A DNA stretch of 27,052 bases from the IMG/VR virus record IMGVR_UViG_2541047934_000004, positions 1 through 27,052 of that record; one strand, 5' to 3'. This document shows, one piece after another, positions 1-17,547 of this stretch. A program made the position numbers and the translations under genes. A model generated the notes under the pieces. That model was not told the DNA's origin. It saw only the letters and a list, made by a program, of their open reading frames with translations, and did no database searches. Origin of the DNA: a virus (lineage: Duplodnaviria > Heunggongvirae > Uroviricota > Caudoviricetes). The first letter of the stretch is position 1. Each line of letters opens with the position of its first letter.

Positions 1-255
1 ACCGGATATTGTTGTCGGAGATGTAAAGGCCTTGCACTGTCAAGAACATCGAGGCGTCTGTCTCAGGAAGTCACCGAGCGTTTTTATGTGTGCACGGAGC
101 CGGGTTGTGGTCTGGTGTTTAAAACGCTTCAGACCATCAACCGCTTCATTGTTCGCCCGGTCACGCCGGACGAACTGGCAGAAAGCCTGCATGAAAAACA
201 GGAACTGCCGCCAGTACGGTTAAAAACACAATCATATTCGCTGCGTCTGGAATGA
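1..255 (+). CDS. delta: Delta/Ogr-family zinc-finger late-gene activator, C-terminal part (5' end outside window)
   Basis: Frame 1 is open from position 1 to TGA at 253-255. Translation ...CCRRCKGLALSRTSRRLSQEVTERFYVCTEPGCGLVFKTLQTINRFIVRP... carries the Ogr signature (C-x2-C, RTSR, ERY/F, second Cys pair, R-x-IV-P). It lies immediately upstream of psu as in the P4 sid-delta-psu operon. The listed ORF 32..223 is in another frame. Confidence 0.7.
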   Translation, partial: TGYCCRRCKGLALSRTSRRLSQEVTERFYVCTEPGCGLVFKTLQTINRFIVRPVTPDELAESLHEKQELPPVRLKTQSYSLRLE

Positions 256-328
256 GGGCTGCCGGTTAACCCCGGCCGTCGCCGCACACCGTATTTTTAT
301 TCTTCAGCATGATGAGAAAGAGATAACG

Positions 329-901
329 ATGGAAAGCACAGCCTTACAGCAGGCCTTTGACACCTGTCAGAATAACAAAGCAGCATGGCTGCAACGCAAA
401 AATGAGCTGGCTGCGGCCGAACAGGAATATCTGCGGCTTCTGTCCGGGGAAGGCAGAAACGTCAGTCGCCTGGACGAATTACGCAATATTATCGAAGTCA
501 GAAAATGGCAGGTGAATCAGGCTGCCGGTCGTTATATTCGTTCGCATGAAGCCGTTCAGCACATCAGCATCCGCGACCGGCTGAATGATTTTATGCTGCA
601 GCACGGCACAGCACTGGCGGCCGCACTGGCACCGGAGCTGATGGGCTACAGTGAGCTGACGGCCATTGCCCGAAACTGTGCCATACAGCGTGCCACAGAT
701 GCCCTGCGTGAAGCCCTCCTGTCCTGGCTTGCGAAGGGTGAAAAAATTAATTATTCCGCACAGGATAGCGACATTTTAACGACCATCGGATTCAGGCCTG
801 ACGCGGCTTCGGTGGATGACAGCCGTGAAAAATTCACCCCTGCGCAGAACATGATTTTTTCGCGTAAAAGTGCGCAACTGGCATCACGTCAGTCTGTGTA
901 A
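329..901 (+). CDS. psu: Psu, polarity suppression / capsid decoration protein (P4-like)
   Basis: 190-aa ORF whose translation (MESTALQQAFDTCQNNKAAWLQRKNELAAAEQEYLRLL...) matches the P4 Psu protein as I recall it, at the expected length and position (after delta, before cos). Confidence 0.85.
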   Translation: MESTALQQAFDTCQNNKAAWLQRKNELAAAEQEYLRLLSGEGRNVSRLDELRNIIEVRKWQVNQAAGRYIRSHEAVQHISIRDRLNDFMLQHGTALAAALAPELMGYSELTAIARNCAIQRATDALREALLSWLAKGEKINYSAQDSDILTTIGFRPDAASVDDSREKFTPAQNMIFSRKSAQLASRQSV

Positions 902-935
902 AACTCCCCGAAAATCCGCCCGTTTTACTGAAAAA

Positions 936-975
936 AGCCATGCATCGATAAGGTGCATGGCTTTGCATGCGTTTT
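936..975 (+). terminator. Rho-independent terminator after psu
   Basis: Perfect 9-bp stem agccatgca / tgcatggct (936-944 and 954-962) with a 9-nt loop, followed by ttgcatgcgtttt. Confidence 0.5.
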
Positions 976-1064
976 CCTGCCTCATTTTCTGTAAACCGTG
1001 CCATTCCCGGCGCGGTCTGAGCGTGTCAGTACAACTGCATTAAAACCGCCCCGCAAAGCGGGCG

Positions 1065-1083
1065 GGCGAGGCGGGGAAAGCAC
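1065..1083. other. cos cohesive-end 19-mer of P2/P4 type (satellite packaging site)
   Basis: Exact string ggcgaggcggggaaagcac, which is the 19-nt cohesive-end sequence of P2/P4 as I recall it, at the position expected for P4 cos (between psu and the cargo/int region). Confidence 0.7.
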
Positions 1084-1110
1084 TGCGCGCAGTATAAGAA
1101 TTAAATAGGT

Positions 1111-1128
1111 ATGGATTTTAAAATCCAT
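1111..1128 (-). terminator. Perfect 18-bp palindrome overlapping the stop codon of the NACHT gene (possible terminator or protein-binding site)
   Basis: atggattttaaaatccat is a perfect palindrome. It overlaps the stop codon of the minus-strand 652-aa ORF and lies 28 nt from the cos 19-mer. No strong U-tract follows, so the terminator call is weak. Confidence 0.3.
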
Positions 1129-3076
1129 CAAGTAGCTGATTGATACCATTGCTCTCATCACAATTTATTTGCTCTAACTCAAATAAAGCACTGTCGTACT
1201 TTATTTGGGGAGTGTTTTCAAATGACAATAAAGATTCGATTAGTCTTATTTCTTTATCTTTATTTATGTCTTTAAGTGAGTCTAAAGTTAAATTGAATTT
1301 AACTTCGGGTTGTTTTCCTACTTCCATCATGATATTTGACTCCAACTCTGGATCAGTATTGAAGAATCGATGTGTCTTATGGAAATAACTAGGTTTTCTT
1401 GATTTTAAAATACTTAGTATATCCGACTTGATAGTGCTTTCCCGTGCTATCACAAGCCAATGGTTGGCAACCCCTGTGATGGTGGTAATGATGTGGGAGC
1501 CATTTTCACTTAGTTCATTAAAGGCTCTTAAGTCACCCTTGAAAAAATCATTTAGCAACTCATTTTCTTTATCTTTATCAAAAAGGTAAATTATTGAATT
1601 GCCGGCTAATGATATTTCAGCCTTGGTTTTTATAGTATCGCAATTAAATTGCGCGGTCTCATTTTTTAATTCTTCGTAAGATGATTTTAAGTCTAAAAGC
1701 AAGCATTTTATTATACTTGATCTGAAAGATGAGTAATCAATATCAGCACAAAGTGAAAATAAATTTCTGTGACGAATGGATTCAGGGCTGTAATATAGCT
1801 TTGTTAATATTTCTTTTTGGCGTTCTTTTGTGTCACGACAGATAAACATAGCTGCAAAATATTCCATTAATGATTTGTGTGACCAACGAATAATAGCGCC
1901 TTCTTTGACAAATAATGGAACGGTTTCAATTAAGTCCTGAATAAAAAGAGATGGTGAAGTTGATATTCCGGGAATTTTTGAAATGATATTTTGCAATGTT
2001 ATTTGCAGATCGTCTTTCGTAAACTCAATTTTACCTCCGTCTTTCAAACACCAAAAACCTAATCTCCTTAAGACCTGATGGAAGTCAGTGGAGTCTAGCT
2101 TAGAAAATTTTTCTCTAACATAACCAAGTTCTTTAGTTAAATCATGAGACTCATACAAAGCGTCAAATACTTGGCTATAAAATAACTCTCTTTTTCTTGG
2201 TATTATCGGTTTGAATTTATATGCACAAAATAATAATGAAACATAAAGAGGTGTGGATAAAAATTCATTTAGATTATGACCATTCTCCAGTCGTAATCCT
2301 TTAATTAATTGAGATGAAATAGGGCCACGTCCATCATATCGACGTAATAGATCATACGCTTGATTCGTTTCTAATGGGTTGATTTTAAATCTTGAGAAAC
2401 CATGTAGTTCTGATAAGAAATTATCATGACGAGAAGTTATAATTATTTTGCTTTCTGAGAAATTATTAGCAAAGGTACTTAGTAAATTTACGATCTTGGA
2501 TTTGAGTTGTTGTGGGATTTCATCTATGCCATCGAAAAGATAAATAAAAGGGATTTTTTTGAGGCAGTTGTCTGAAATGTCTTCTCCTAAACCAAGTTGA
2601 TGTTTCACCTGTAGCGCAAAATCATAATCTTTAGCACGTCGTAATTCAATGTATATTGGAATGTATTCCTTATTAGCGATGCAATCTAAAGCAATTCTTT
2701 TCATTAGGGTGGACTTACCCATTCCTGCTGAGTCAGTGATTAATATATGATTGAAATTATCTAATAAATCTGCATTGTCTTTTATTAGGCATGTGTATGG
2801 TTTTTTTTCATTATCGTAATAAATGCTCATTGGCTCATAAATATCTAGAAGCTCTACTGGAGTATTTTGAAAAGCTAAGGTATTCACAAGGGAGCATTGC
2901 CCTTTCACATTTGATAGGAAACGTTCAAGATTTTTATTCAAGAAGCGTGCTGCATGTACATCTATTAAATAATTACGAACACTACTTTCTATGATAGGTA
3001 ATATTTTATTCTTAATAACCTCCTTTGCCCATGGAAGGGATGCAGAGACTAATACATCAAGAGATACTGGTTGCAT
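1118..3076 (-). CDS. NACHT/STAND-family P-loop NTPase (652 aa), candidate anti-phage NLR-like protein in the P4 accessory hotspot
   Basis: Walker A ILITDSAGMGKSTLMKRIA (GMGKST encoded at 2725-2708), NACHT-type Walker B IPFIYLFDGIDEI (hhhhDGxDE) and a downstream IIITSR motif. About 110 aa precede the P-loop and about 330 aa follow the NTPase core. ATG at 3076 is 3 nt after the integrase stop. The gene is visibly AT-rich compared with flanking genes. Confidence 0.75.
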   Translation of the reverse strand: MQPVSLDVLVSASLPWAKEVIKNKILPIIESSVRNYLIDVHAARFLNKNLERFLSNVKGQCSLVNTLAFQNTPVELLDIYEPMSIYYDNEKKPYTCLIKDNADLLDNFNHILITDSAGMGKSTLMKRIALDCIANKEYIPIYIELRRAKDYDFALQVKHQLGLGEDISDNCLKKIPFIYLFDGIDEIPQQLKSKIVNLLSTFANNFSESKIIITSRHDNFLSELHGFSRFKINPLETNQAYDLLRRYDGRGPISSQLIKGLRLENGHNLNEFLSTPLYVSLLFCAYKFKPIIPRKRELFYSQVFDALYESHDLTKELGYVREKFSKLDSTDFHQVLRRLGFWCLKDGGKIEFTKDDLQITLQNIISKIPGISTSPSLFIQDLIETVPLFVKEGAIIRWSHKSLMEYFAAMFICRDTKERQKEILTKLYYSPESIRHRNLFSLCADIDYSSFRSSIIKCLLLDLKSSYEELKNETAQFNCDTIKTKAEISLAGNSIIYLFDKDKENELLNDFFKGDLRAFNELSENGSHIITTITGVANHWLVIARESTIKSDILSILKSRKPSYFHKTHRFFNTDPELESNIMMEVGKQPEVKFNLTLDSLKDINKDKEIRLIESLLSFENTPQIKYDSALFELEQINCDESNGINQLLDGF

Positions 3077-3079
3077 GAA

Positions 3080-4288
3080 TTATACCTTATTTTCTACGTT
3101 TAAATTTTTGACCTTAAGTCCCCACCAGTTCATTAAATCGATTCTGGTATGTAAATATGTTGAGCGGTTATATGCTCTTCTAACTTCGTTTTTGTCAGAG
3201 TGCGCTAAAGCAGCTTCAATGACATCTGGGTTAAAACCTCTTTCATTCATGGCTGTACTTGCTATTGAACGTAGACCATGAGCAACCAGCTTCCCGCCAT
3301 AACCAATACGTTTTAAAGCAGCATTAGCAGTTTGGCTATTCATTGGCTGTTTTGGGTCATTTCTACTGGGAAAAACATGTTCACGATGAGCACTGATTGG
3401 TTTCATTACCTCCAGAATCTCTATTGCCTGAGGTGATAAAGGAACAATGTGTTCCCGCTTAGCTTTCATCCGTTCGGCTGGAATAGTCCAGAGCTTTGCG
3501 TCAAGATCGATCTCTGCCCAACGAGCACCGGAAGCTTCAGAAGGGCGCACAAGGGTCAGAAGCTGCCACTCAATTAGACAGCGAGTCGAAACAGAGAGGT
3601 TCGACATCACCAAAGAGCGCATGAGTTTTGGTAATTCTTCAGGTCGTAGCGTTGGCATGTGTTGCTTTTTGGGTTTCTCAAATGCCATACCAATACCAGA
3701 TGCCGGGTTTGCATCAATCAGGCCAGTGTTGACGGCGTAGATCATGATTTCGTTAATACGCTGCACCAGTCGACGTACAGTCTCTAGCGCCCCACGTGCT
3801 TTGATTGGCTCAAGGGTTTCAACTAGTGTTCGGGCTTTGATTTGCTGGACAGGGATCTCCCCGATGACAGGGAATACGTCTTTTTCCAGTGACCGCCATA
3901 TATCTTTAGCGTAATCGGGTGTAACGCTTTTGCTTTTGAGCTGGAACCAGTTAGCGGCGACCGTTGAAAAAATACTGTCCAGAGCGATTTGCTGCTGTTC
4001 CTCTGCAACTTCGGCCTGAATTTGCGGGTCAATTCCGTTGGCTAACAAAGCAAGGTAATCCGCTCTTAACCGTCGAGCATCAGCAAGTGAAAGGGCGGGG
4101 AAAGCACCAAGCCCCATCATTGTCCGCTGTTTTGTTGCTGGACGTTGATAACGGAAACGCCACAACTTCTTACCGTTCGTTTTAACGAGCAGAAAAAGAC
4201 CATCGCCATCATGTAACGTTAGATCCTTTTCTAACGCTCTAGCGCGCAGAACTTCTGTGCTGGTCAGGGGGCGTGTCGTTCTTGCCAC
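3080..4288 (-). CDS. int: Tyrosine integrase, P4/CP4-57 (IntA) type
   Basis: 402-aa ORF, N-terminus MARTTRPLTSTEVLRARALEKDLTLHDGDGLFLLVKTNGKKLWRFRYQRP typical of P4-family integrases; C-terminal catalytic region with HGLR and a conserved Tyr context. GTG start with aaggag RBS. Directly downstream of a tmRNA 3'-end copy, as for ssrA-intA. Confidence 0.9.
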   Translation of the reverse strand: MARTTRPLTSTEVLRARALEKDLTLHDGDGLFLLVKTNGKKLWRFRYQRPATKQRTMMGLGAFPALSLADARRLRADYLALLANGIDPQIQAEVAEEQQQIALDSIFSTVAANWFQLKSKSVTPDYAKDIWRSLEKDVFPVIGEIPVQQIKARTLVETLEPIKARGALETVRRLVQRINEIMIYAVNTGLIDANPASGIGMAFEKPKKQHMPTLRPEELPKLMRSLVMSNLSVSTRCLIEWQLLTLVRPSEASGARWAEIDLDAKLWTIPAERMKAKREHIVPLSPQAIEILEVMKPISAHREHVFPSRNDPKQPMNSQTANAALKRIGYGGKLVAHGLRSIASTAMNERGFNPDVIEAALAHSDKNEVRRAYNRSTYLHTRIDLMNWWGLKVKNLNVENKV

Positions 4289-4310
4289 TGTGGCCGCTCC
4301 TTCATTAATT

Positions 4311-4358
4311 GGTATACGCGTTTAGGTAAACATCCTACCGTATACCTAAACGTATACC
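4311..4358. promoter_or_regulatory. Inverted/direct ggtatacg repeats between att core and int start (candidate integrase arm sites or int operator)
   Basis: ggtatacgcgtttaggta (4311-4328) is an inverted copy of tacctaaacgtatacc (4343-4358); cgtatacc also occurs at 4339-4346. Confidence 0.35.
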
Positions 4359-4400
4359 AATAATCACTGGATTTAGCTGGATATCCTCGGACAACGGTAG

Positions 4401-4436
4401 ACACAAAAAAGCCCGCAGAGCTTGTGCCATGCGGGC
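4401..4436 (-). terminator. Rho-independent terminator immediately 3' of the tmRNA 3'-end copy (minus strand)
   Basis: On the minus strand: stem gcccgc, 14-nt loop, stem gcgggc, then tttttt (complement of aaaaaa at 4405-4410). It lies about 35 nt downstream of the CCA end of the tmRNA segment. Confidence 0.55.
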
Positions 4437-4472
4437 TTTCAGGATTTCTCCGGACGTATCCGGAAGAGCAAG

Positions 4473-4517
4473 TGGTGGAGCTGGCGGGAGTTGAACCCGC
4501 GTCCGAAATTCCTACAT
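4473..4517 (-). other. ssrA: 45-nt copy of the ssrA (tmRNA) 3' end = attachment core (attL/attR junction); not a complete tmRNA gene
   Basis: Minus strand reads atgtaggaatttcggacgcgggttcaactcccgccagctccacca, matching the 3'-terminal T-arm/acceptor end of enterobacterial tmRNA as I recall it. Upstream of it (plus coordinates above 4517) the sequence does not continue as tmRNA, so only the terminal ~45 nt are present here. Confidence 0.7.
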
Positions 4518-9126: not shown

Positions 9127-9980
9127 GCACCATCCTGAAATGGGCGGGAAATAAAACCGCCATTATGTCCGAACTGAAAAAACACCTTCCTGCTGGCCCG
9201 CGACTGGTTGAACCTTTCGCGGGTTCCTGTGCTGTGATGATGGAGACGGATTACCCCAGCTATCTGGTTGCGGATATTAATCCTGATTTAATCAACCTCT
9301 ATAAAAAGGTTGCTGCTGATTGTGAATCGTTTATATCTCGCGCCAGAGTTTTATTTGAGATCGCAAACAGGGAGGTGGCTTATTACAACATAAGGCAGGA
9401 GTTTAATTACTCCACTGAAATTACTGATTTCATGAAAGCGGTATATTTCCTGTATCTCAATCGTCACGGTTACCGTGGTTTATGTCGCTATAACAAGAGC
9501 GGGCATTTCAACATTCCCTACGGTAATTATAAAAATCCGTATTTCCCTGAAAAAGAAATTCGCGCATTTGCAGAAAAGGCCCAGCGAGCAACGTTTATCT
9601 GCGCCAGCTTTGATGAAACGCTGGCGATGTTGAAGGCGGGGGATGTGGTGTATTGCGATCCGCCGTATGACGGTACGTTTTCCGGCTATCACACTGATGG
9701 TTTCACTGAAGATGACCAGTATCACCTGGCATCTGTTCTTGAACATCGGTCATCAGAAGGACATCCGGTCATTGTTTCTAACAGTGACACATCCCTGATC
9801 CGTTCGCTGTATCGCAATTTTACTCACCACTACATCAAGGCAAAACGCAGCATCGGTGTGGCAGCTGGCGAGGGTAAATCAGCAACAGAAATCATTGCTG
9901 TTTCCGGGCCGCGCTGCTGGGTGGGATTTGATTATTCGCGTGGCGTGGATAGTTCTGCCGTGTACGGAGTACGTGCATGA
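9123..9980 (+). CDS. dam: DNA adenine methyltransferase (Dam-like, N6-adenine, DPPY motif)
   Basis: N-terminus [23 protein letters not shown]...EPFAGSCAV (AdoMet-binding FxGxG-like) and catalytic [12 protein letters not shown] (DPPY). ATG 9123 overlaps the stop of the upstream gene; the listed 9063 start is an in-frame upstream extension. Confidence 0.85.
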
Positions 9981-12391
9981 GCCATGCCGATATGAACAAC
10001 TGCTGCGGCTTTAACGAGGCTGCCGCATCGTTCTCATGGAACAGCCCGAAAAAGGCCATTAACCCTTATCTGGACCCGGCGGAAGTTGCGCCGGTTTCTG
10101 CGCTTTCAAACCTGATCACTCTGTACGCTGCCGATAACGAGCAGGAACAGCTGCGCCGCGAGGCACTGAGTGATCAGGTCTGGGAGCGTTATTTCTTTAA
10201 TGAATCCCGTGATCCTGTCCAGCGCGAAATGGAGCAGGATAAGCTCATTAGTCGGGCAAAGCTGGCGCATGAGCAGCAGCGTTTTAATCCAGATATGGTC
10301 ATTCTGGCGGACGTCAATGCCCAGCCTTCCCATATCAGCAAGCCGCTGATGCAACGTATTGAATACTTCAGCAGCCTGGGCAGGCCAAAGGCTTATTCCC
10401 GCTATTTGCGTGAGACGATTAAGCCATGTCTGGAACGACTGGAGCATGTACGCGACAGTCAGCTATCCGCTTCTTTTCGCTTTATGGCAAGCCATGAAGG
10501 GCTGGATGGCCTGCTTATCCTGCCTGAAATGAGTCAGGATCAGGTGAAGCGCCTGTCTACCCTTGTCGCTGCGCATATGAGCATGTGCCTTGATGCAGCT
10601 TGTGGTGATTTGTATGCCACCGATGACGTTAAGCCAGAAGAAATCCGCAAGACATGGGAAAAGGTGGCAGCGGAAACCCTGCGTCTGGATGTTATCCCGC
10701 CTGCGTTTGAGCAACTCCGTCGGAAAAGAAACCGCCGTAAACCCGTGCCCTATGAACTCATTCCGGGTTCGCTGGCGCGTATGTTGTGCGCTGACTGGTG
10801 GTACCGGAAATTATGGAAGATGCGTTGCGAATGGCGGGAAGAGCAGTTGCGCGCTGTCTGCCTGGTCAGCAAAAAAGCATCTCCTTATGTCAGCTATGAA
10901 GCCGTGATGCATAAACGTGAGCAGCGCCGTAAGTCGCTGGAGTTTTTCCGTTCTCATGAACTGGTGAACGAAGACGGCGACACGCTGGACATGGAGGATG
11001 TGGTAAACGCCAGCAGCAGCAACCCTGCGCATCGCCGCAATGAGATGATGGCCTGTGTTAAAGGTCTGGAACTTATCGCGGAAATGCGCGGTGACTGCGC
11101 CGTTTTCTACACCATCACCTGTCCGTCACGTTTCCATTCCACGCTAAATAACGGCAGACCCAACCCGAACTGGACAAATGCGACGGTAAGACAAAGCAGT
11201 GATTATTTGGTCGGCATGTTTGCTGCATTTCGTAAGGCGATGCACAAAGCCGGATTGCGCTGGTATGGCGTGCGGGTGGCTGAGCCGCATCATGACGGTA
11301 CAGTTCACTGGCACCTGTTGTGTTTTATGCGCAAAAAAGACCGCCGCGCCATCACTGCATTACTGCGTAAGTTTGCCATCCGTGAAGACCGCGAGGAGCT
11401 GGGCAATAACACGGGGCCGCGCTTTAAGTCTGAGTTGATTAACCCGCGCAAAGGAACGCCGACAAGCTACATCGCGAAATATATCAGTAAGAACATTGAC
11501 GGGCGTGGTCTGGCTGGCGAGATCAGCAAGGAAACGGGTAAATCCCTGCGTGATAACGCTGAATACGTGAATGCCTGGGCGTCTCTGCATCGTGTTCAGC
11601 AATTCCGCTTCTTTGGCATTCCGGGGCGTCAGGCTTACCGTGAACTGCGATTGCTGGCTGGTCAGGCGGCAAGGCAACAGGGTGACAAAAAAGCAGGTGC
11701 GCCGGTACTGGATAACCCGCGCCTTGATGCAATCCTGGCTGCTGCTGATGCTGGTTGTTTTGCCACCTACATCATGAAGCAGGGCGGCGTACTGGTTCCC
11801 CGTAAATATCACCTTATCAGAACTGCTTATGAAATCAACGAAGAGCCGACCGCCTATGGCGATCACGGCATTCGTATTTATGGCATCTGGTCACCTATTG
11901 CAGAGGGCAAGATCTGCACTCATGCCGTGAAGTGGAAAATGGTTCGTAAGGCCGTTGACGTTCAGGAGGCGGCAGCCGACCAGGGCGCTTGCGCCCCTTG
12001 GACTCGTGGCAATAACTGTCCCCTTGCTGAAAATTTGAACCAACAGGAGAAAGATAAATCAGCTGATGGGGACCCCAGAACGGACATTACCAGCATGGAT
12101 GACAAGGAGTTGCACGATTACCTGCACAGTATGAGCAAAAAAGAGCGCCGGGAACTGGCAGCAAGGTTACGCCTGGTGAAACCGAAACGGCGTAAAGACT
12201 ACAAACAGCGAATTACAGACCATCAGCGACTGCAGCTCGTGTATGAGCTGAAGTCCAGAGGATTTGATGGCAGCGAGAAAGAGGTCGATTTACTCCTTCG
12301 CGGAGGCAGTATTCCGTCAGGAGCAGGCCTGCGTATCTTCTATCGGAACCAGCGTTTGCAGGAAGATGATCAGTGGCGGAACCTGTATTAA
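9977..12391 (+). CDS. A: Replication initiation protein A (P2 gpA / 186 RepA family, rolling-circle nickase)
   Basis: 804-aa ORF at the gpA position. Contains an HUH-like motif (TVHWHLLCF) and a tyrosine-rich motif [12 protein letters not shown] typical of rolling-circle initiators. Start overlaps dam stop. Confidence 0.85.
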
Positions 12392-12734: not shown

Positions 12735-12968
12735 ATGCGCATTGAAATAATGATCGATAAAGAGCAGAAGATTAGCCAGTCTACCCTGGACGCCCTTGAA
12801 TCCGAGCTTTACCGCAATCTGCGCCCCCTGTATCCCAAAACGGTAATTCGCATTCGCAAAGGTAGCTCTAACGGTGTGGAACTAACCGGACTGCAACTGG
12901 ACGAAGAAAGAAAACAAGTGATGAAAATTATGCAGAAGGTGTGGGAAGACGACAGCTGGCTGCATTAA
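12735..12968 (+). CDS. DinI-family protein (Tum antirepressor-like)
   Basis: Translation MRIEIMIDKEQKISQSTLDALESELYRNLRPLYPKTVIRIRKGSSNGVELTGLQLDEERKQVMKIMQKVWEDDSWLH aligns along its length with E. coli DinI as I recall it (MRIEV..., ...ETWESADDW...). Position after gene A matches the 186 tum region. Confidence 0.7.
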   Translation: MRIEIMIDKEQKISQSTLDALESELYRNLRPLYPKTVIRIRKGSSNGVELTGLQLDEERKQVMKIMQKVWEDDSWLH

Positions 12969-13103
12969 GAAACGTTGCTGGCGTCTGAACTTGCTTCTGG
13001 CGTCAGCAAGGTTGAACAACGAGCCCTTGCGAGGCGTTAGCTCTGTAGTGCATGTCTATGCCGCATGAGATCGCATGATCGTTTGAGGATCGTTTTTGCT
13101 AAG

Positions 13104-13127
13104 GCCCGCCAGAACTGGCGGGCTTTT
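13104..13127 (+). terminator. Rho-independent terminator after the Tum/DinI-like operon
   Basis: gcccgccag aa ctggcgggc (perfect 9-bp GC-rich stem) followed by ttttg. Confidence 0.65.
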
Positions 13128-13172
13128 GCGTAGATCATGCAGGTGCATGAAAACCACTACATAAAGCGGGCA

Positions 13173-13191
13173 GGCGTGGCGGGGATACGAG
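13173..13191. other. cos-like 19-mer of the P2/186-like prophage (diverged from the satellite cos)
   Basis: ggcgtggcggggatacgag with flanks aaagcggg...cgcgcg, homologous to the region around the satellite cos at 1065-1083 (aaagcggg...ggcgaggcggggaaagcac...gcgcgc). Located where cos is expected, between the end of the early region and portal gene Q. Confidence 0.5.
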
Positions 13192-13289
13192 CGCGCGTAT
13201 TTGGTCGTTACTTAGCTTTTTTTTATCAATAGATTAAGCTAACTTAAGTCTTTTTAGGAAAAAATATTTTTTCGTGATGAGGTAGAAAG

Positions 13290-14699
13290 ATGTCTTTTCT
13301 TGATATAAAAAAAATGAGTAAAGAGAGGTTTAATGCTTTTGTTGATTGGACCAGAATGCCAAATACTGAACTTTTAGGCTATGAGTTTGAGTGGTACTGT
13401 AGTCCGAGAGAGTTCCTGCTAGGGGCACTATTATTGGATCAAATCGATGAAGATTATAGCGGTATTGTTTTAGCAAGAGACTTAAGTGGGAGATATAGAT
13501 GTATTGACCTATTTACTAGTGTTTCAGAAATGAATTCTGCACGAGCAAAACTAAAGAAATTAATGCGGAAGCATACTAAATTAAACGTAAAAGTATTTCC
13601 ACAAGGTGATGAAACTTATAAAGCAATGGATTTATTCACACCTATAGTTACACCAGATAAACTTCATCATCATTTTTCATTATTTGGTAAATACGCGAAC
13701 TGGTCGCCTGCAACAGGGATAATCAAGGAAATGATGAATCATTTTGAGGATGTCGACGGGAATTTTATAGAGCAGTTTCAGACAACAGGTTTTGATGCCC
13801 GGCTATGGGAGTTATATCTTTTCGCATATTTACGAGAGGAACACTTTTGGCTAGATAGGCAGTTTAATGCCCCTGATTATGTGGCACGTAAGTATGGTAA
13901 TACTATTTGCATTGAAGCTGTAACGGTTAATCCAACAGGGAATGATATTAATCAATCATCTGAAATGCTATCAGAACCTAAAAGTAAGGAAGAATTGCTA
14001 GAGAAAATAGAGAATTATATGCCGATTAAATTTGGAAGTTCTCTCTATTCTAAACTGAAAAAGAAAACTCGATACTGGGATCTAGAACATGTTAAGGGGA
14101 ATCCTTTAATTTTCGCAATTGCTGATTTTCATGAACCAAACTCTATGATTTGGTCCCATAGTGCACTTTGGCAGTATCTTTATGGTATTCGCTATGAGCA
14201 TGTTAAATCTGAAGATGGATGTTACAGTTTAGCAACTAAGAAAATTATATCGCATCAATTTGAGAAAAAGGAAATTCCTTCAGGCTTTTTCTTCTTGGAT
14301 GAGTCTGAAAATATTTCGGCCGTCCTTAGTTCTAATAGTGGTACTATATCGAAGTTTAATCGGATGGGAAAACTGGCTGGTTTTGGAAGAAGTGACCTTA
14401 GATTATTTAGGAGTGGTTACTGCCATGATCATGACCCAGAGGCATTATATCCAGCAGCATTTAGTTTTGAAGTGAAAGAAGGCGATATTACAGAAACATG
14501 GGCAGAAGGTTTAAATATGTATCATAATCCTAATGCTAAATATCCTGTAGATCCTGATTTATTTCCTTCAATAGCACATCATTTTCTTGAAAATGGAGAG
14601 GTTAAAAGTATAGTTCCTGACTTTCATCCGTATACATCTATTACCATAAATGTCTTAACTCAAAATAATAAAAAACAAAAAATCAGAGTAGATGAGTAA
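13290..14699 (+). CDS. Hypothetical protein (469 aa), AT-rich cargo gene between cos and portal gene; candidate novel anti-phage or accessory function
   Basis: Long ORF with gagg RBS 7 nt upstream of ATG, own AT-rich promoter-like leader, convergent with Q. No P-loop, HNH, HTH or other motif I can recognise by eye. Composition is clearly more AT-rich than the neighbouring phage genes. Confidence 0.75.
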   Translation: MSFLDIKKMSKERFNAFVDWTRMPNTELLGYEFEWYCSPREFLLGALLLDQIDEDYSGIVLARDLSGRYRCIDLFTSVSEMNSARAKLKKLMRKHTKLNVKVFPQGDETYKAMDLFTPIVTPDKLHHHFSLFGKYANWSPATGIIKEMMNHFEDVDGNFIEQFQTTGFDARLWELYLFAYLREEHFWLDRQFNAPDYVARKYGNTICIEAVTVNPTGNDINQSSEMLSEPKSKEELLEKIENYMPIKFGSSLYSKLKKKTRYWDLEHVKGNPLIFAIADFHEPNSMIWSHSALWQYLYGIRYEHVKSEDGCYSLATKKIISHQFEKKEIPSGFFFLDESENISAVLSSNSGTISKFNRMGKLAGFGRSDLRLFRSGYCHDHDPEALYPAAFSFEVKEGDITETWAEGLNMYHNPNAKYPVDPDLFPSIAHHFLENGEVKSIVPDFHPYTSITINVLTQNNKKQKIRVDE

Positions 14700-14720
14700 T
14701 TAATTAGGTTTATTCTTGTT

Positions 14721-14742
14721 AACCACCTCATAGAGGTGGTTA
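14721..14742 (+). terminator. Hairpin between convergent cargo gene and Q (possible terminator)
   Basis: aaccacctc atag gaggtggtt, a perfect 9-bp stem; weak U-tract on either strand. Confidence 0.35.
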
Positions 14743-14746
14743 TTAA

Positions 14747-15781
14747 TTAGTCTAGGGATAGTTGATATTCTTTGAATGTAATAATATTATTTTTTAGCCA
14801 TAAATTTAATTCTTCGAAACGTTTTTGCAAAGGTATTAATTCATTACGAACAAATACCCGACTTGCCTTCTCCACATCCCCAAACCCCCCAACATTATTC
14901 GGCAAAATTCCCATCATCTGAGGCGGTACGCGGTGTGCAGCCATCATGTCGTCCCGGCTCACGTTCTTGATGTTCAGAAATTCATCTTTCGCTGCGACTT
15001 CTGACAACGGGATGATCTGAAGCCCGTCCTTTTTGCCGTTAGGCGAGTACATAAACAGGTTGCGGAAGTTGCCAGGGCCTTTGGCGCTTTTCATCGCGTT
15101 GCGGAGGTTGTTCACATCTTCCTGGTTCTGCGCGGCGTCGGTCATATACATGATGAAGCCTGCATGACTGCCGTTAATGTAATACTTGCGGCGGAACAGC
15201 GTGGCAGACTCGTTGAGCAGGGCGGATGGAATAGCAGAAAGATAACCGGGCAGGCCGTAGATCTCCTGGTTGATGTCCGGTTCCATCAGATGAAAGATGC
15301 TGCCTTTCGTGAACTGATATGGCTGCGTGGTCATACCGTATTGCACAAACCAGTAGGTATCCAGGTCTAACCCGCGTCGGGTGTATTTTGCCAAGGCAGG
15401 TTCAAGGGCGATAACTTCACCGAAGCGGTTCGTGCGTTTCTCCAGGTAGGCGTTACCAAATACCAGATAGTCCTGCACAAAACGCGAAAAAGCCTGCTGG
15501 CTGAGCAGCGGGTGAGGGATGTAGGTGCTGGTCAGAATGTTGCACTTTACTGCAATCGGGGAACTATGATGAACGGCAGCGCGGAAGGTGCGCGCCAGTC
15601 CGTCAAAGCTGACGGGCGGCTCATACCAGCGGTCCATCTGTACGCATTCCACATAATCCAGCAGTTCTCGGCGGTCCAGAACAGGAACGGGATCGCCGAA
15701 GCTGAATGCTTCGGCTGTAGTTTGACTTTTAAGCTGGATCTGTTTCGTCGCCGCAGCGCGGTTCTTCTTACTCTTTCCCAT
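14747..15781 (-). CDS. Q: Portal protein (P2 gpQ)
   Basis: 344 codons from ATG 15781, which overlaps the P stop as ATGA; size and position match P2 Q. Confidence 0.9.
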   Translation of the reverse strand: MGKSKKNRAAATKQIQLKSQTTAEAFSFGDPVPVLDRRELLDYVECVQMDRWYEPPVSFDGLARTFRAAVHHSSPIAVKCNILTSTYIPHPLLSQQAFSRFVQDYLVFGNAYLEKRTNRFGEVIALEPALAKYTRRGLDLDTYWFVQYGMTTQPYQFTKGSIFHLMEPDINQEIYGLPGYLSAIPSALLNESATLFRRKYYINGSHAGFIMYMTDAAQNQEDVNNLRNAMKSAKGPGNFRNLFMYSPNGKKDGLQIIPLSEVAAKDEFLNIKNVSRDDMMAAHRVPPQMMGILPNNVGGFGDVEKASRVFVRNELIPLQKRFEELNLWLKNNIITFKEYQLSLD

Positions 15782-17547
15782 CAAAAAATCTCCACAATAT
15801 TGCTGGTATTGGCGGATTCGCCCTGCAGCGGTTCGTTAAACAGTGCGTGCATCGTTGCCCAGGCCAGATCGGCGTGGCTGGCTTCTTCGCTGCGGCTGGC
15901 TTCATAGGTCGGGCGGTTGCCACTGGCGGTGGTGGCGCGACGGATTGCCATAAAGGACTGCGCTATGTCGGTGTGTCCGGCGTCAAACTCCAGACGGCGG
16001 TGGCTGATAATGTCGTAGGCCTTGAGTACCAGGGCGTTTTTAACGTTGGGGTTGTAGACAAACTCCCGGACGGCAGGAAAAAACGCTTTCACGTTCTCGT
16101 AAACCCCGTGACCAACGCCGGTTGAGTCGATACCGATATAGGTCACGTTGTACTGTTCGGTCAGTTTTTTGATGGCGTCAGCCTGGGCGCGGAAGTCCAT
16201 TCCGCGCCACTGGTGACGCTCAAGAATGCGGAACTTACCGCCCGGCACGGCTGGCGGCGCCACCACCACGCATCCGGCGCTGTCGCCGTTCTGCGTACCT
16301 TTCGCCGGGTCATATCCGATCCACACTTCGCGCCAGCCAAACGGGCGCAGGGCCAGTGCATGAAAGTCGGTCCAGACTTCCCAACTGTCCACCATGCACG
16401 CCTGCAGCTCGCTGAGTGGGAACACAGACGCGAGATCGTCCACGAACTCACACATCAGCAGGTTCTGGTATTCGTCCGGGCTGTACTCCATGCGCAACTG
16501 GTCGAGGTCGAACAGGTTACAGCCGCCGCGCACCGCATCTTCCACAGTGACTATCTGGCGGTACTGCCCGTCTGCGCACAGCAGGCCGGGGGCCAGATTG
16601 CTGTGGGACAGGTCGATGTCCACCTTATCGGCTTTGTTGCGCCCTCGGTTGAACAGCGCACCGGACCAGAACGGATAAGCACTGTGTGTCAGGCTGGATG
16701 GCGTGGAAAAATAGGTTTGTCGCCATTTTTTGTGAATAGCCATACCGGAAGCCACTTTGCGCAGCTCCTGGAATTTCGGTATCCAGAAATATTCATCCAG
16801 ATACAGGTTGCCGTGGTAACTCTGGGCCGTGCGGGCATTGGTGCCGAGGAAGTACAGCGTGGCCCCGTTAGGAAGCACCATCGGATCGCCTTTCAGCTCC
16901 ACCTCCACTTCTTTGGCGAAGTCGATGATGTACTGCTTAAAGACGTGGGCCTGAGCCTTGCTGGCGGAAAGGAAAATCTGGTTACGCCCGGTTAGCAGGG
17001 CGTCAATCAGGGCTTCACGGGCAAAATAGAAGGTCGCGCCGATCTGGCGTGACTTCAGCAGGTTGCGGATGCGGTTGGTTTTTCCGGCTTCCCACCAGTG
17101 GCGCTGGTAGTTGAACATGGAGGAATGGAAGATTTCTTCCAACTTCTCAATCTGTTCATCGGTGAAAACGTTCTTTTCCGGCTGACGGCGCGGGCCTTTG
17201 TTGCGGTTGGCGACGTTAGGGTTTAAGTCGGCTTCGTTGCCGCCATTGTTAAACTTGCCGATCCGCGCATGGCGCTCCGACTGGCGCGCCAGCAGGTCAA
17301 TCTCTTTGAAATCTTTCCCTTCTTTGTGCTCCTTCATAATGAGCTGGCAGTAGCGTGCGGCGGTGGTGAGCTGCATCTGATCCAGCGGCCCATAGTCACC
17401 CCACTTGTCGCGTTTTTTCCAGCTGTGAACGGTTGCAACTTTCTCGCCCAGCATTTCAGCAATGCGGGCTACGCGGTATCCCTGAAAGTACAGCAGCATG
17501 GCCTGCCGACGGGGATCGAGATCTGCGGGTGTCAGTGTGGTGTTCAT
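15781..17547 (-). CDS. P: Terminase large (ATPase) subunit (P2 gpP)
   Basis: 588-aa ORF upstream of Q and divergent from O; size and position match P2 P. Confidence 0.9.
   Translation of the reverse strand: MNTTLTPADLDPRRQAMLLYFQGYRVARIAEMLGEKVATVHSWKKRDKWGDYGPLDQMQLTTAARYCQLIMKEHKEGKDFKEIDLLARQSERHARIGKFNNGGNEADLNPNVANRNKGPRRQPEKNVFTDEQIEKLEEIFHSSMFNYQRHWWEAGKTNRIRNLLKSRQIGATFYFAREALIDALLTGRNQIFLSASKAQAHVFKQYIIDFAKEVEVELKGDPMVLPNGATLYFLGTNARTAQSYHGNLYLDEYFWIPKFQELRKVASGMAIHKKWRQTYFSTPSSLTHSAYPFWSGALFNRGRNKADKVDIDLSHSNLAPGLLCADGQYRQIVTVEDAVRGGCNLFDLDQLRMEYSPDEYQNLLMCEFVDDLASVFPLSELQACMVDSWEVWTDFHALALRPFGWREVWIGYDPAKGTQNGDSAGCVVVAPPAVPGGKFRILERHQWRGMDFRAQADAIKKLTEQYNVTYIGIDSTGVGHGVYENVKAFFPAVREFVYNPNVKNALVLKAYDIISHRRLEFDAGHTDIAQSFMAIRRATTASGNRPTYEASRSEEASHADLAWATMHALFNEPLQGESANTSNIVEIF

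Follow-up and report, generated by a model that had tools for sequence, protein, structure and literature searches.

A gene of the PD-T7-1 defence family lies beside cos in a P2/186-like prophage of Escherichia coli

The window analysed here, a stretch of 27,052 nucleotides, contains the end of a P4-like satellite followed by a P2/186-like prophage, and positions 4480-27052 are 99.996% identical to the genome of E. coli MSB1_4I. The gene order in the region of interest is the replication endonuclease gene A (9977-12391), cos (19-mer at 13173-13191), a cargo gene (13290-14699) and the portal gene Q (14747-15784). The cargo gene is an ATG-to-stop open reading frame (ORF) of 469 codons on the plus strand, and the same coding sequence is annotated in MSB1_4I as WP_000008839.1, a "hypothetical protein" in RefSeq. 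Given its base composition, a stretch of 469 codons without a stop has a chance probability of about 2e-17. Q, the homologue of P2 Q and 186 W, lies on the minus strand as an ORF labelled "phage portal protein" by RefSeq and forms the right boundary of the cargo slot. On the replication side, the conserved backbone ends with a DinI-like gene at 12735-12968 on the plus strand (Pfam DinI, 6.6e-23, in agreement with the RefSeq annotation). Between A and this gene, a hypothetical 62-aa ORF (WP_001154434.1; 12536-12724, plus strand) is conserved across the prophage lineage, and searches of Pfam and PADLOC with it returned no match.

The cos core of the prophage, at 13143-13197 on the plus strand, aligns with the 55-bp core of P2 and P4. 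Its cos-like 19-mer, GGCGTGGCGGGGATACGAG at 13173-13191, agrees with the annotated cohesive ends of 186 at 15 of 19 positions and with those of P2 at 14 of 19, recurs unchanged in all ten related E. coli prophage loci, and is followed by a 2-nt deletion relative to P2. The distance from cos to the stop codon of the portal gene is 1,555 nt in the prophage, as compared with 187 nt in P2 (Q stop to cosL) and 196 nt in 186 (W stop).

The composition of the cargo gene is aberrant. Its G+C content is 35.0%, versus 53% for A, 50% for Q and 57% for the terminase gene P, and at third codon positions the value is 26%, versus 58%, 60% and 72%, respectively. Upstream lies an AT-rich leader (13198-13289, plus strand; 26% G+C) that travels with the cargo and contains a ribosome-binding site, GAGG at 13279-13282, read from the sequence 7 nt ahead of the ATG. 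Scans for sigma-70 promoters between cos and the ATG (13100-13295) gave no match at 9 of 12 consensus positions or better, nor at 8 of 12. Downstream, the cargo gene and Q converge, with stop codons 47 nt apart. The intervening spacer (14700-14746) holds a hairpin at 14720-14742 with a 10-bp stem and a 3-nt loop, UAACCACCUC-AUA-GAGGUGGUUA. It is predicted to fold as RNA at -15.4 kcal/mol (z = -4.0), and none of 200 shuffled sequences was equally stable. There is no T-run beside the hairpin on either strand and the terminator scan made no call there; the hairpin is possibly a bidirectional terminator of an atypical kind. An earlier note on this DNA, made by reading the sequence, had already pointed out the 469-aa ORF convergent with Q, its visibly low G+C, its good ribosome-binding site, the cos-like 19-mer and the expansion of the cos-to-Q interval from about 200 bp in P2 to about 1.5 kb, and the ORF and RefSeq records, the composition figures and the cos alignments bear out each of these. 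The "promoter-like" leader that it also described found no backing in the sigma-70 scans, even at the lower threshold.

Positions 1-4479 of the window are the end of the P4-like satellite, where MSB1_4I instead has its ypjA region, identity with that genome beginning at 4480. The satellite end comprises Psu (329-901, plus strand; Pfam Psu, 1.2e-87), a cos core (1035-1089; 53 of 55 positions shared with the P2 core), a gene for a 652-aa NACHT/STAND NTPase with a SNaCT5 C-terminus (1118-3076, minus strand; Pfam NACHT, 2.2e-08, and SNaCT5, 3.4e-07) and a P4-type tyrosine integrase (3080-4288, minus strand). The cos 19-mer of the satellite, GGCGAGGCGGGGAAAGCAC at 1065-1083, is identical to that of P2 and differs from the prophage 19-mer at 5 of 19 positions. 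By its domains, the NTPase in the cos-adjacent hotspot of the satellite is a defence candidate of the bacterial NLR-like type; PADLOC v2.0.0 returned no match for it. At the junction of satellite and prophage, 4473-4504 on the minus strand is an exact 32-nt match to GGACGCGGGTTCAACTCCCGCCAGCTCCACCA, which we take to be the 3' end of ssrA (tmRNA). Because ARAGORN finds no complete tmRNA there, the match is probably an att-site repeat. Since the end of the satellite adjoins the P2-like prophage, the window holds a satellite and a helper-type prophage in tandem, each with known or putative defence cargo beside its cos.

The interval between A and Q that adjoins cos, in which the 469-aa gene resides, is a described defence hotspot of P2-like phages (Rousset et al. 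2022, PMC9122126) and was named "hotspot #1" in a functional survey (Vassallo et al. 2022, PMC9519451). As a direct test of the hotspot, a 4.5-kb backbone query spanning A, DinI, cos, cargo, Q and P was compared with 5,426 complete E. coli genomes. The backbone was found in 1,293 of them, of which no more than 22 reach a coverage of at least 80% of the query with the cargo included. The cargo alone occurs in 25 genomes, always in single copy, always chromosomal and with at least 99.6% identity. Extra-intestinal pathogenic strains, among them S88, UPEC132 and ExPEC XM, account for many of the carriers, and two copies are interrupted by IS1, in E. coli 33-6 and 58-3 (NZ_CP050031.1 and NZ_CP050036.1), both isolates from broiler chickens. 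Other genomes carry dozens of different cargo annotations in the A-Q interval, and the content varies among close prophages. It includes retrons Ec67 and St85, GmrSD, DarT-macro with AIPR, PRTase-DprA, TIR, PIN and DUF262 proteins, an AAA ATPase with HNH, and P-loop NTPases.

A comparison of the cos-Q interval across related prophages, which the earlier note had called for, confirmed that the slot is variable and allowed its breakpoints to be mapped. The cos 19-mer was located in ten related loci and the flanks were aligned in six of them. In these six, homology on the left stops at 13196-13197, only 6 nt past the 19-mer, which marks the left edge of the slot. Homology on the right restarts at 14762-14804, within the AT-rich 3' end of Q, where G+C is 24% at 14747-14800, 37% at 14801-14900 and 53% further in. 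The varying restart points in the tail of Q suggest that cassettes are exchanged by recombination inside the end of this gene. The locus resembles the P2 hotspot in its flanking A and Q genes, its adjacency to cos and its hypervariable content across E. coli. It differs in that P2 itself has tin and old A-side of cos, with 187 nt between cos and Q, whereas the Q side holds the main cargo here and in the DinI-bearing relatives: all ten related loci have a portal-side cargo on the plus strand converging on Q. The earlier note had remarked on the portal-side location as a departure from the classical old/tin position, which is correct with respect to P2, but the arrangement is the usual one in this lineage. 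A further difference is that the DinI-bearing lineage has a second sub-slot between DinI and cos. In the present prophage it is empty (12969-13046, the 78 nt from DinI to the cos-proximal block), while 8 of the 10 related loci have cargo there as well; in related E. coli prophages this sub-slot houses DUF8087, DarT-macro, HNH, RNase A-like/CdiI-like or hypothetical genes.

The 469-aa protein is recognized along nearly its entire length by the PADLOC model for PD-T7-1 (PDLC04073), with residues 7-457 matching positions 2-449 of 452 (E = 1.3e-196, 651.7 bits). The next-best PADLOC model, PD-T7-5 (PDLC04110), covers residues 113-436 only (E = 1.4e-56, 190 bits), and membership of that family was rejected on this partial coverage and far lower score. 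The protein also matches PHROG 8571, a group of unknown function, at 5e-152. Pfam and NCBIfam searches were silent, hence the "hypothetical" label in RefSeq, and neither database gave a match to a virion or housekeeping protein. Three features of PD-T7-1 are thus present together: the best-scoring defence profile, a single-gene layout (the gene is the sole ORF between cos and Q) and a segment resembling Hjc and PD-(D/E)xK nucleases near residues 170-220. We conclude that the gene is very probably a PD-T7-1-family single-gene anti-phage defence. The earlier note, which had found the gene unrecognizable and a candidate for an undescribed single-gene function, was therefore right about the single-gene defence character and wrong about novelty, as this is a full-length member of a validated family. 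Its view of the gene as horizontally acquired cargo agrees with the aberrant composition and with the presence of the gene in only 25 of the approximately 1,290 E. coli genomes with this backbone. Neither observation that it had named as contrary to that view was made: the gene is not conserved in this position with ordinary composition, and it resembles no virion or housekeeping protein.

No conserved partner gene accompanies the homologues in Klebsiella, Burkholderia and Pseudomonas, whose neighbouring genes are unrelated. The Klebsiella homologue lies in a satellite-like element, between primase/integrase and Ogr/Delta-capsid genes, and the Burkholderia homologue adjoins a type I restriction-modification operon; these two neighbourhoods support a defence role.

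PD-T7-1 was among 21 systems recovered in a functional selection (Vassallo et al. 2022, Nat Microbiol, PMC9519451). The reference is one coding sequence of E. coli ECOR46, RCQ85672.1, which was cloned together with its native promoter (PMC9519451). It protected against T7, the selecting phage, and more strongly against T-even phages, with adsorption unaffected (PMC9519451). Both PD-T7-1 and PD-T7-5 are single-gene systems that were labelled "Nuclease", and 7 of 11 putative DNase systems in that study conferred direct immunity (PMC9519451). In an independent study, PD-T7-1 from strain NILS69 protected against a Teseptimavirus and made T7 plaques smaller. The literature groups PD-T7-1 with PD-(D/E)xK DNases; our search of it found no mechanistic study of the system. 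The prophage protein resembles the reference in being encoded by a single gene (469 aa here versus approximately 450), in its collinearity along the entire model, in the weak Hjc/PD-(D/E)xK-like segment that both have near residues 170-220 and in its residence in an E. coli mobile element. It is an allele distinct from the tested ECOR46 protein and has 5 additional N-terminal and 12 additional C-terminal residues, which are Lys/Asn-rich and modelled with low confidence. PD-T7-5 is likewise a single-gene system and is homologous across residues 113-436, but its model lacks the N-terminal domain of approximately 110 residues and scores 190 versus 652 bits. Membership of the family, location in the slot and the variability of the slot were observed directly in the sequences compared here; activity against phage would follow by analogy from the literature on the family, which covers the ECOR46 and NILS69 alleles.

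An AlphaFold2 model built from 68 homologues (pLDDT 89.5, pTM 0.90) predicts an N-terminal alpha/beta domain (residues ~1-100), a central helix/sheet domain (~125-300) and a beta-rich C-terminal domain (~300-457). E174, P195-D196, E209-A210, K255, D279 and H281 are invariant in the alignment of 68 sequences, and the model places E174, D196 and E209 on the expected helix and strands. The closest known folds are the archaeal Holliday-junction resolvase Hjc, VRR-NUC and restriction-endonuclease-like (PD-(D/E)xK) proteins. Thirteen residues separate D196 from E209, which is also the spacing of D42 and E55 in Hjc. The position of the motif lysine is occupied by V211, with valine in 66 of the 68 sequences and threonine in 2. 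Membership of the PD-(D/E)xK superfamily is supported in part: the protein fails the D...(D/E)-x-K test at this lysine, and the evidence for the fold is weak. We therefore describe the central domain as restriction-endonuclease-like rather than canonical PD-(D/E)xK. The earlier note had seen no PD-(D/E)xK signature by eye; the lysine is indeed absent, yet the remainder of the motif, E174...P195-D196...E209-A-V211, is present on a restriction-endonuclease-like fold. Judged from conservation, K255 in the following helix, D279 and H281 might complete the site. The C-terminal domain has its own set of invariant polar residues (T352, K355, R358, R374, E402, E406, H412-N413 and H431), and a structure search with residues 300-457 gave no informative match.

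We propose that the prophage carries the gene as lysogenic-conversion cargo in the sub-slot just portal-side of cos and would express from it a single 469-aa protein, with the central restriction-endonuclease-like domain as the putative effector. This domain would use E174, D196 and E209, with K255 as a possible substitute for the absent motif lysine, and the orphan N- and C-terminal domains may serve as sensor or regulatory modules. When a competing phage infects (for the reference protein, a T7-like or T-even one), nucleic acid would be cut and phage production blocked, with the cell either spared or killed. For this infection-triggered nuclease mechanism taken separately, we regard the odds as about even. 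The explanation as a whole, in which a PD-T7-1 gene is cargo of a cos-adjacent hotspot and may encode such a nuclease, is likely, with a probability of roughly 0.8.

The protein could instead target RNA. Under this alternative, which keeps the family and the defence role, it would cleave tRNA or rRNA and act through abortive infection, as a member of the tRNA-splicing-endonuclease or CdiA-CT tRNase branch of the fold. We consider this unlikely. The acidic triad E174/D196/E209, which is typical of metal-dependent DNases, is invariant, and splicing endonucleases have their residues in the order Y...H...K, whereas the order in the PD-T7-1 protein is K...Y...H. The placement of the family among PD-(D/E)xK DNases in the literature also argues for a DNase, as does the direct immunity conferred by 7 of the 11 putative DNase systems (Vassallo et al. 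2022, PMC9519451). Alternatively, the endonuclease-like domain could be a non-catalytic sensor that binds nucleic acid, the effector being the C-terminal domain (residues 300-457) or a host partner. The missing lysine would fit such a sensor, as would the many invariant polar residues of the C-terminal domain and its want of an informative structural match. Invariant acids at the exact catalytic positions are hard to square with binding alone, and the PD-T7-5 model, which spans the central and C-terminal regions together (113-436), suggests a single functional unit; we find this improbable, more so than an RNA target. A third possibility, which we find very improbable, is that the gene is a cargo with a role other than defence (in virulence, as a metabolic moron, or as the "glycosaminoglycan attachment (site) protein" for which homologues are named in a few sources) and that the anti-phage phenotype of its homologue does not carry over. 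In its favour are these names, the fact that the phenotype was shown with other alleles, and the many extra-intestinal pathogens among the carriers. Against it stand the full-length match to a validated defence family and the overwhelming share of known defence systems among other alleles of the slot, and neither a signal peptide, a transmembrane segment, a Pfam domain nor any evidence in the records backs the other names.

Returning to the proposed nuclease effector, we also entertained a bolder joint reading, which we hold to be doubtful. PD-T7-1 proteins, this allele among them, would then be mechanistically new enzymes with a restriction-endonuclease-like but lysine-less E-A-V core and a site rebuilt from K255, D279 or H281, and their terminal domains, which lack structural relatives, would control the core as a new type of phage sensor. 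If so, the stronger protection against T-even phages would suggest that glucosyl-hydroxymethylcytosine DNA or a T-even-specific trigger is recognized. The breakpoints between cos and portal gene, 6 nt past cos and in the 3' end of Q, could in that case reflect a dedicated cassette exchange linked to packaging.

Because the gene family and the slot have both been published and current defence annotators would pick up the gene automatically, the finding is not new, and its value lies in annotation and not in discovery. The prophage equips its host with an anti-phage gene of a validated class, one that PADLOC models recognize where RefSeq records a hypothetical protein. The interest that remains concerns the biochemistry of PD-T7-1, with its atypical lysine-less core and two orphan domains, and the two-part organization of the hotspot, which in the DinI-bearing P2/186-like lineage is divided by cos into two sub-slots with sharp breakpoints.
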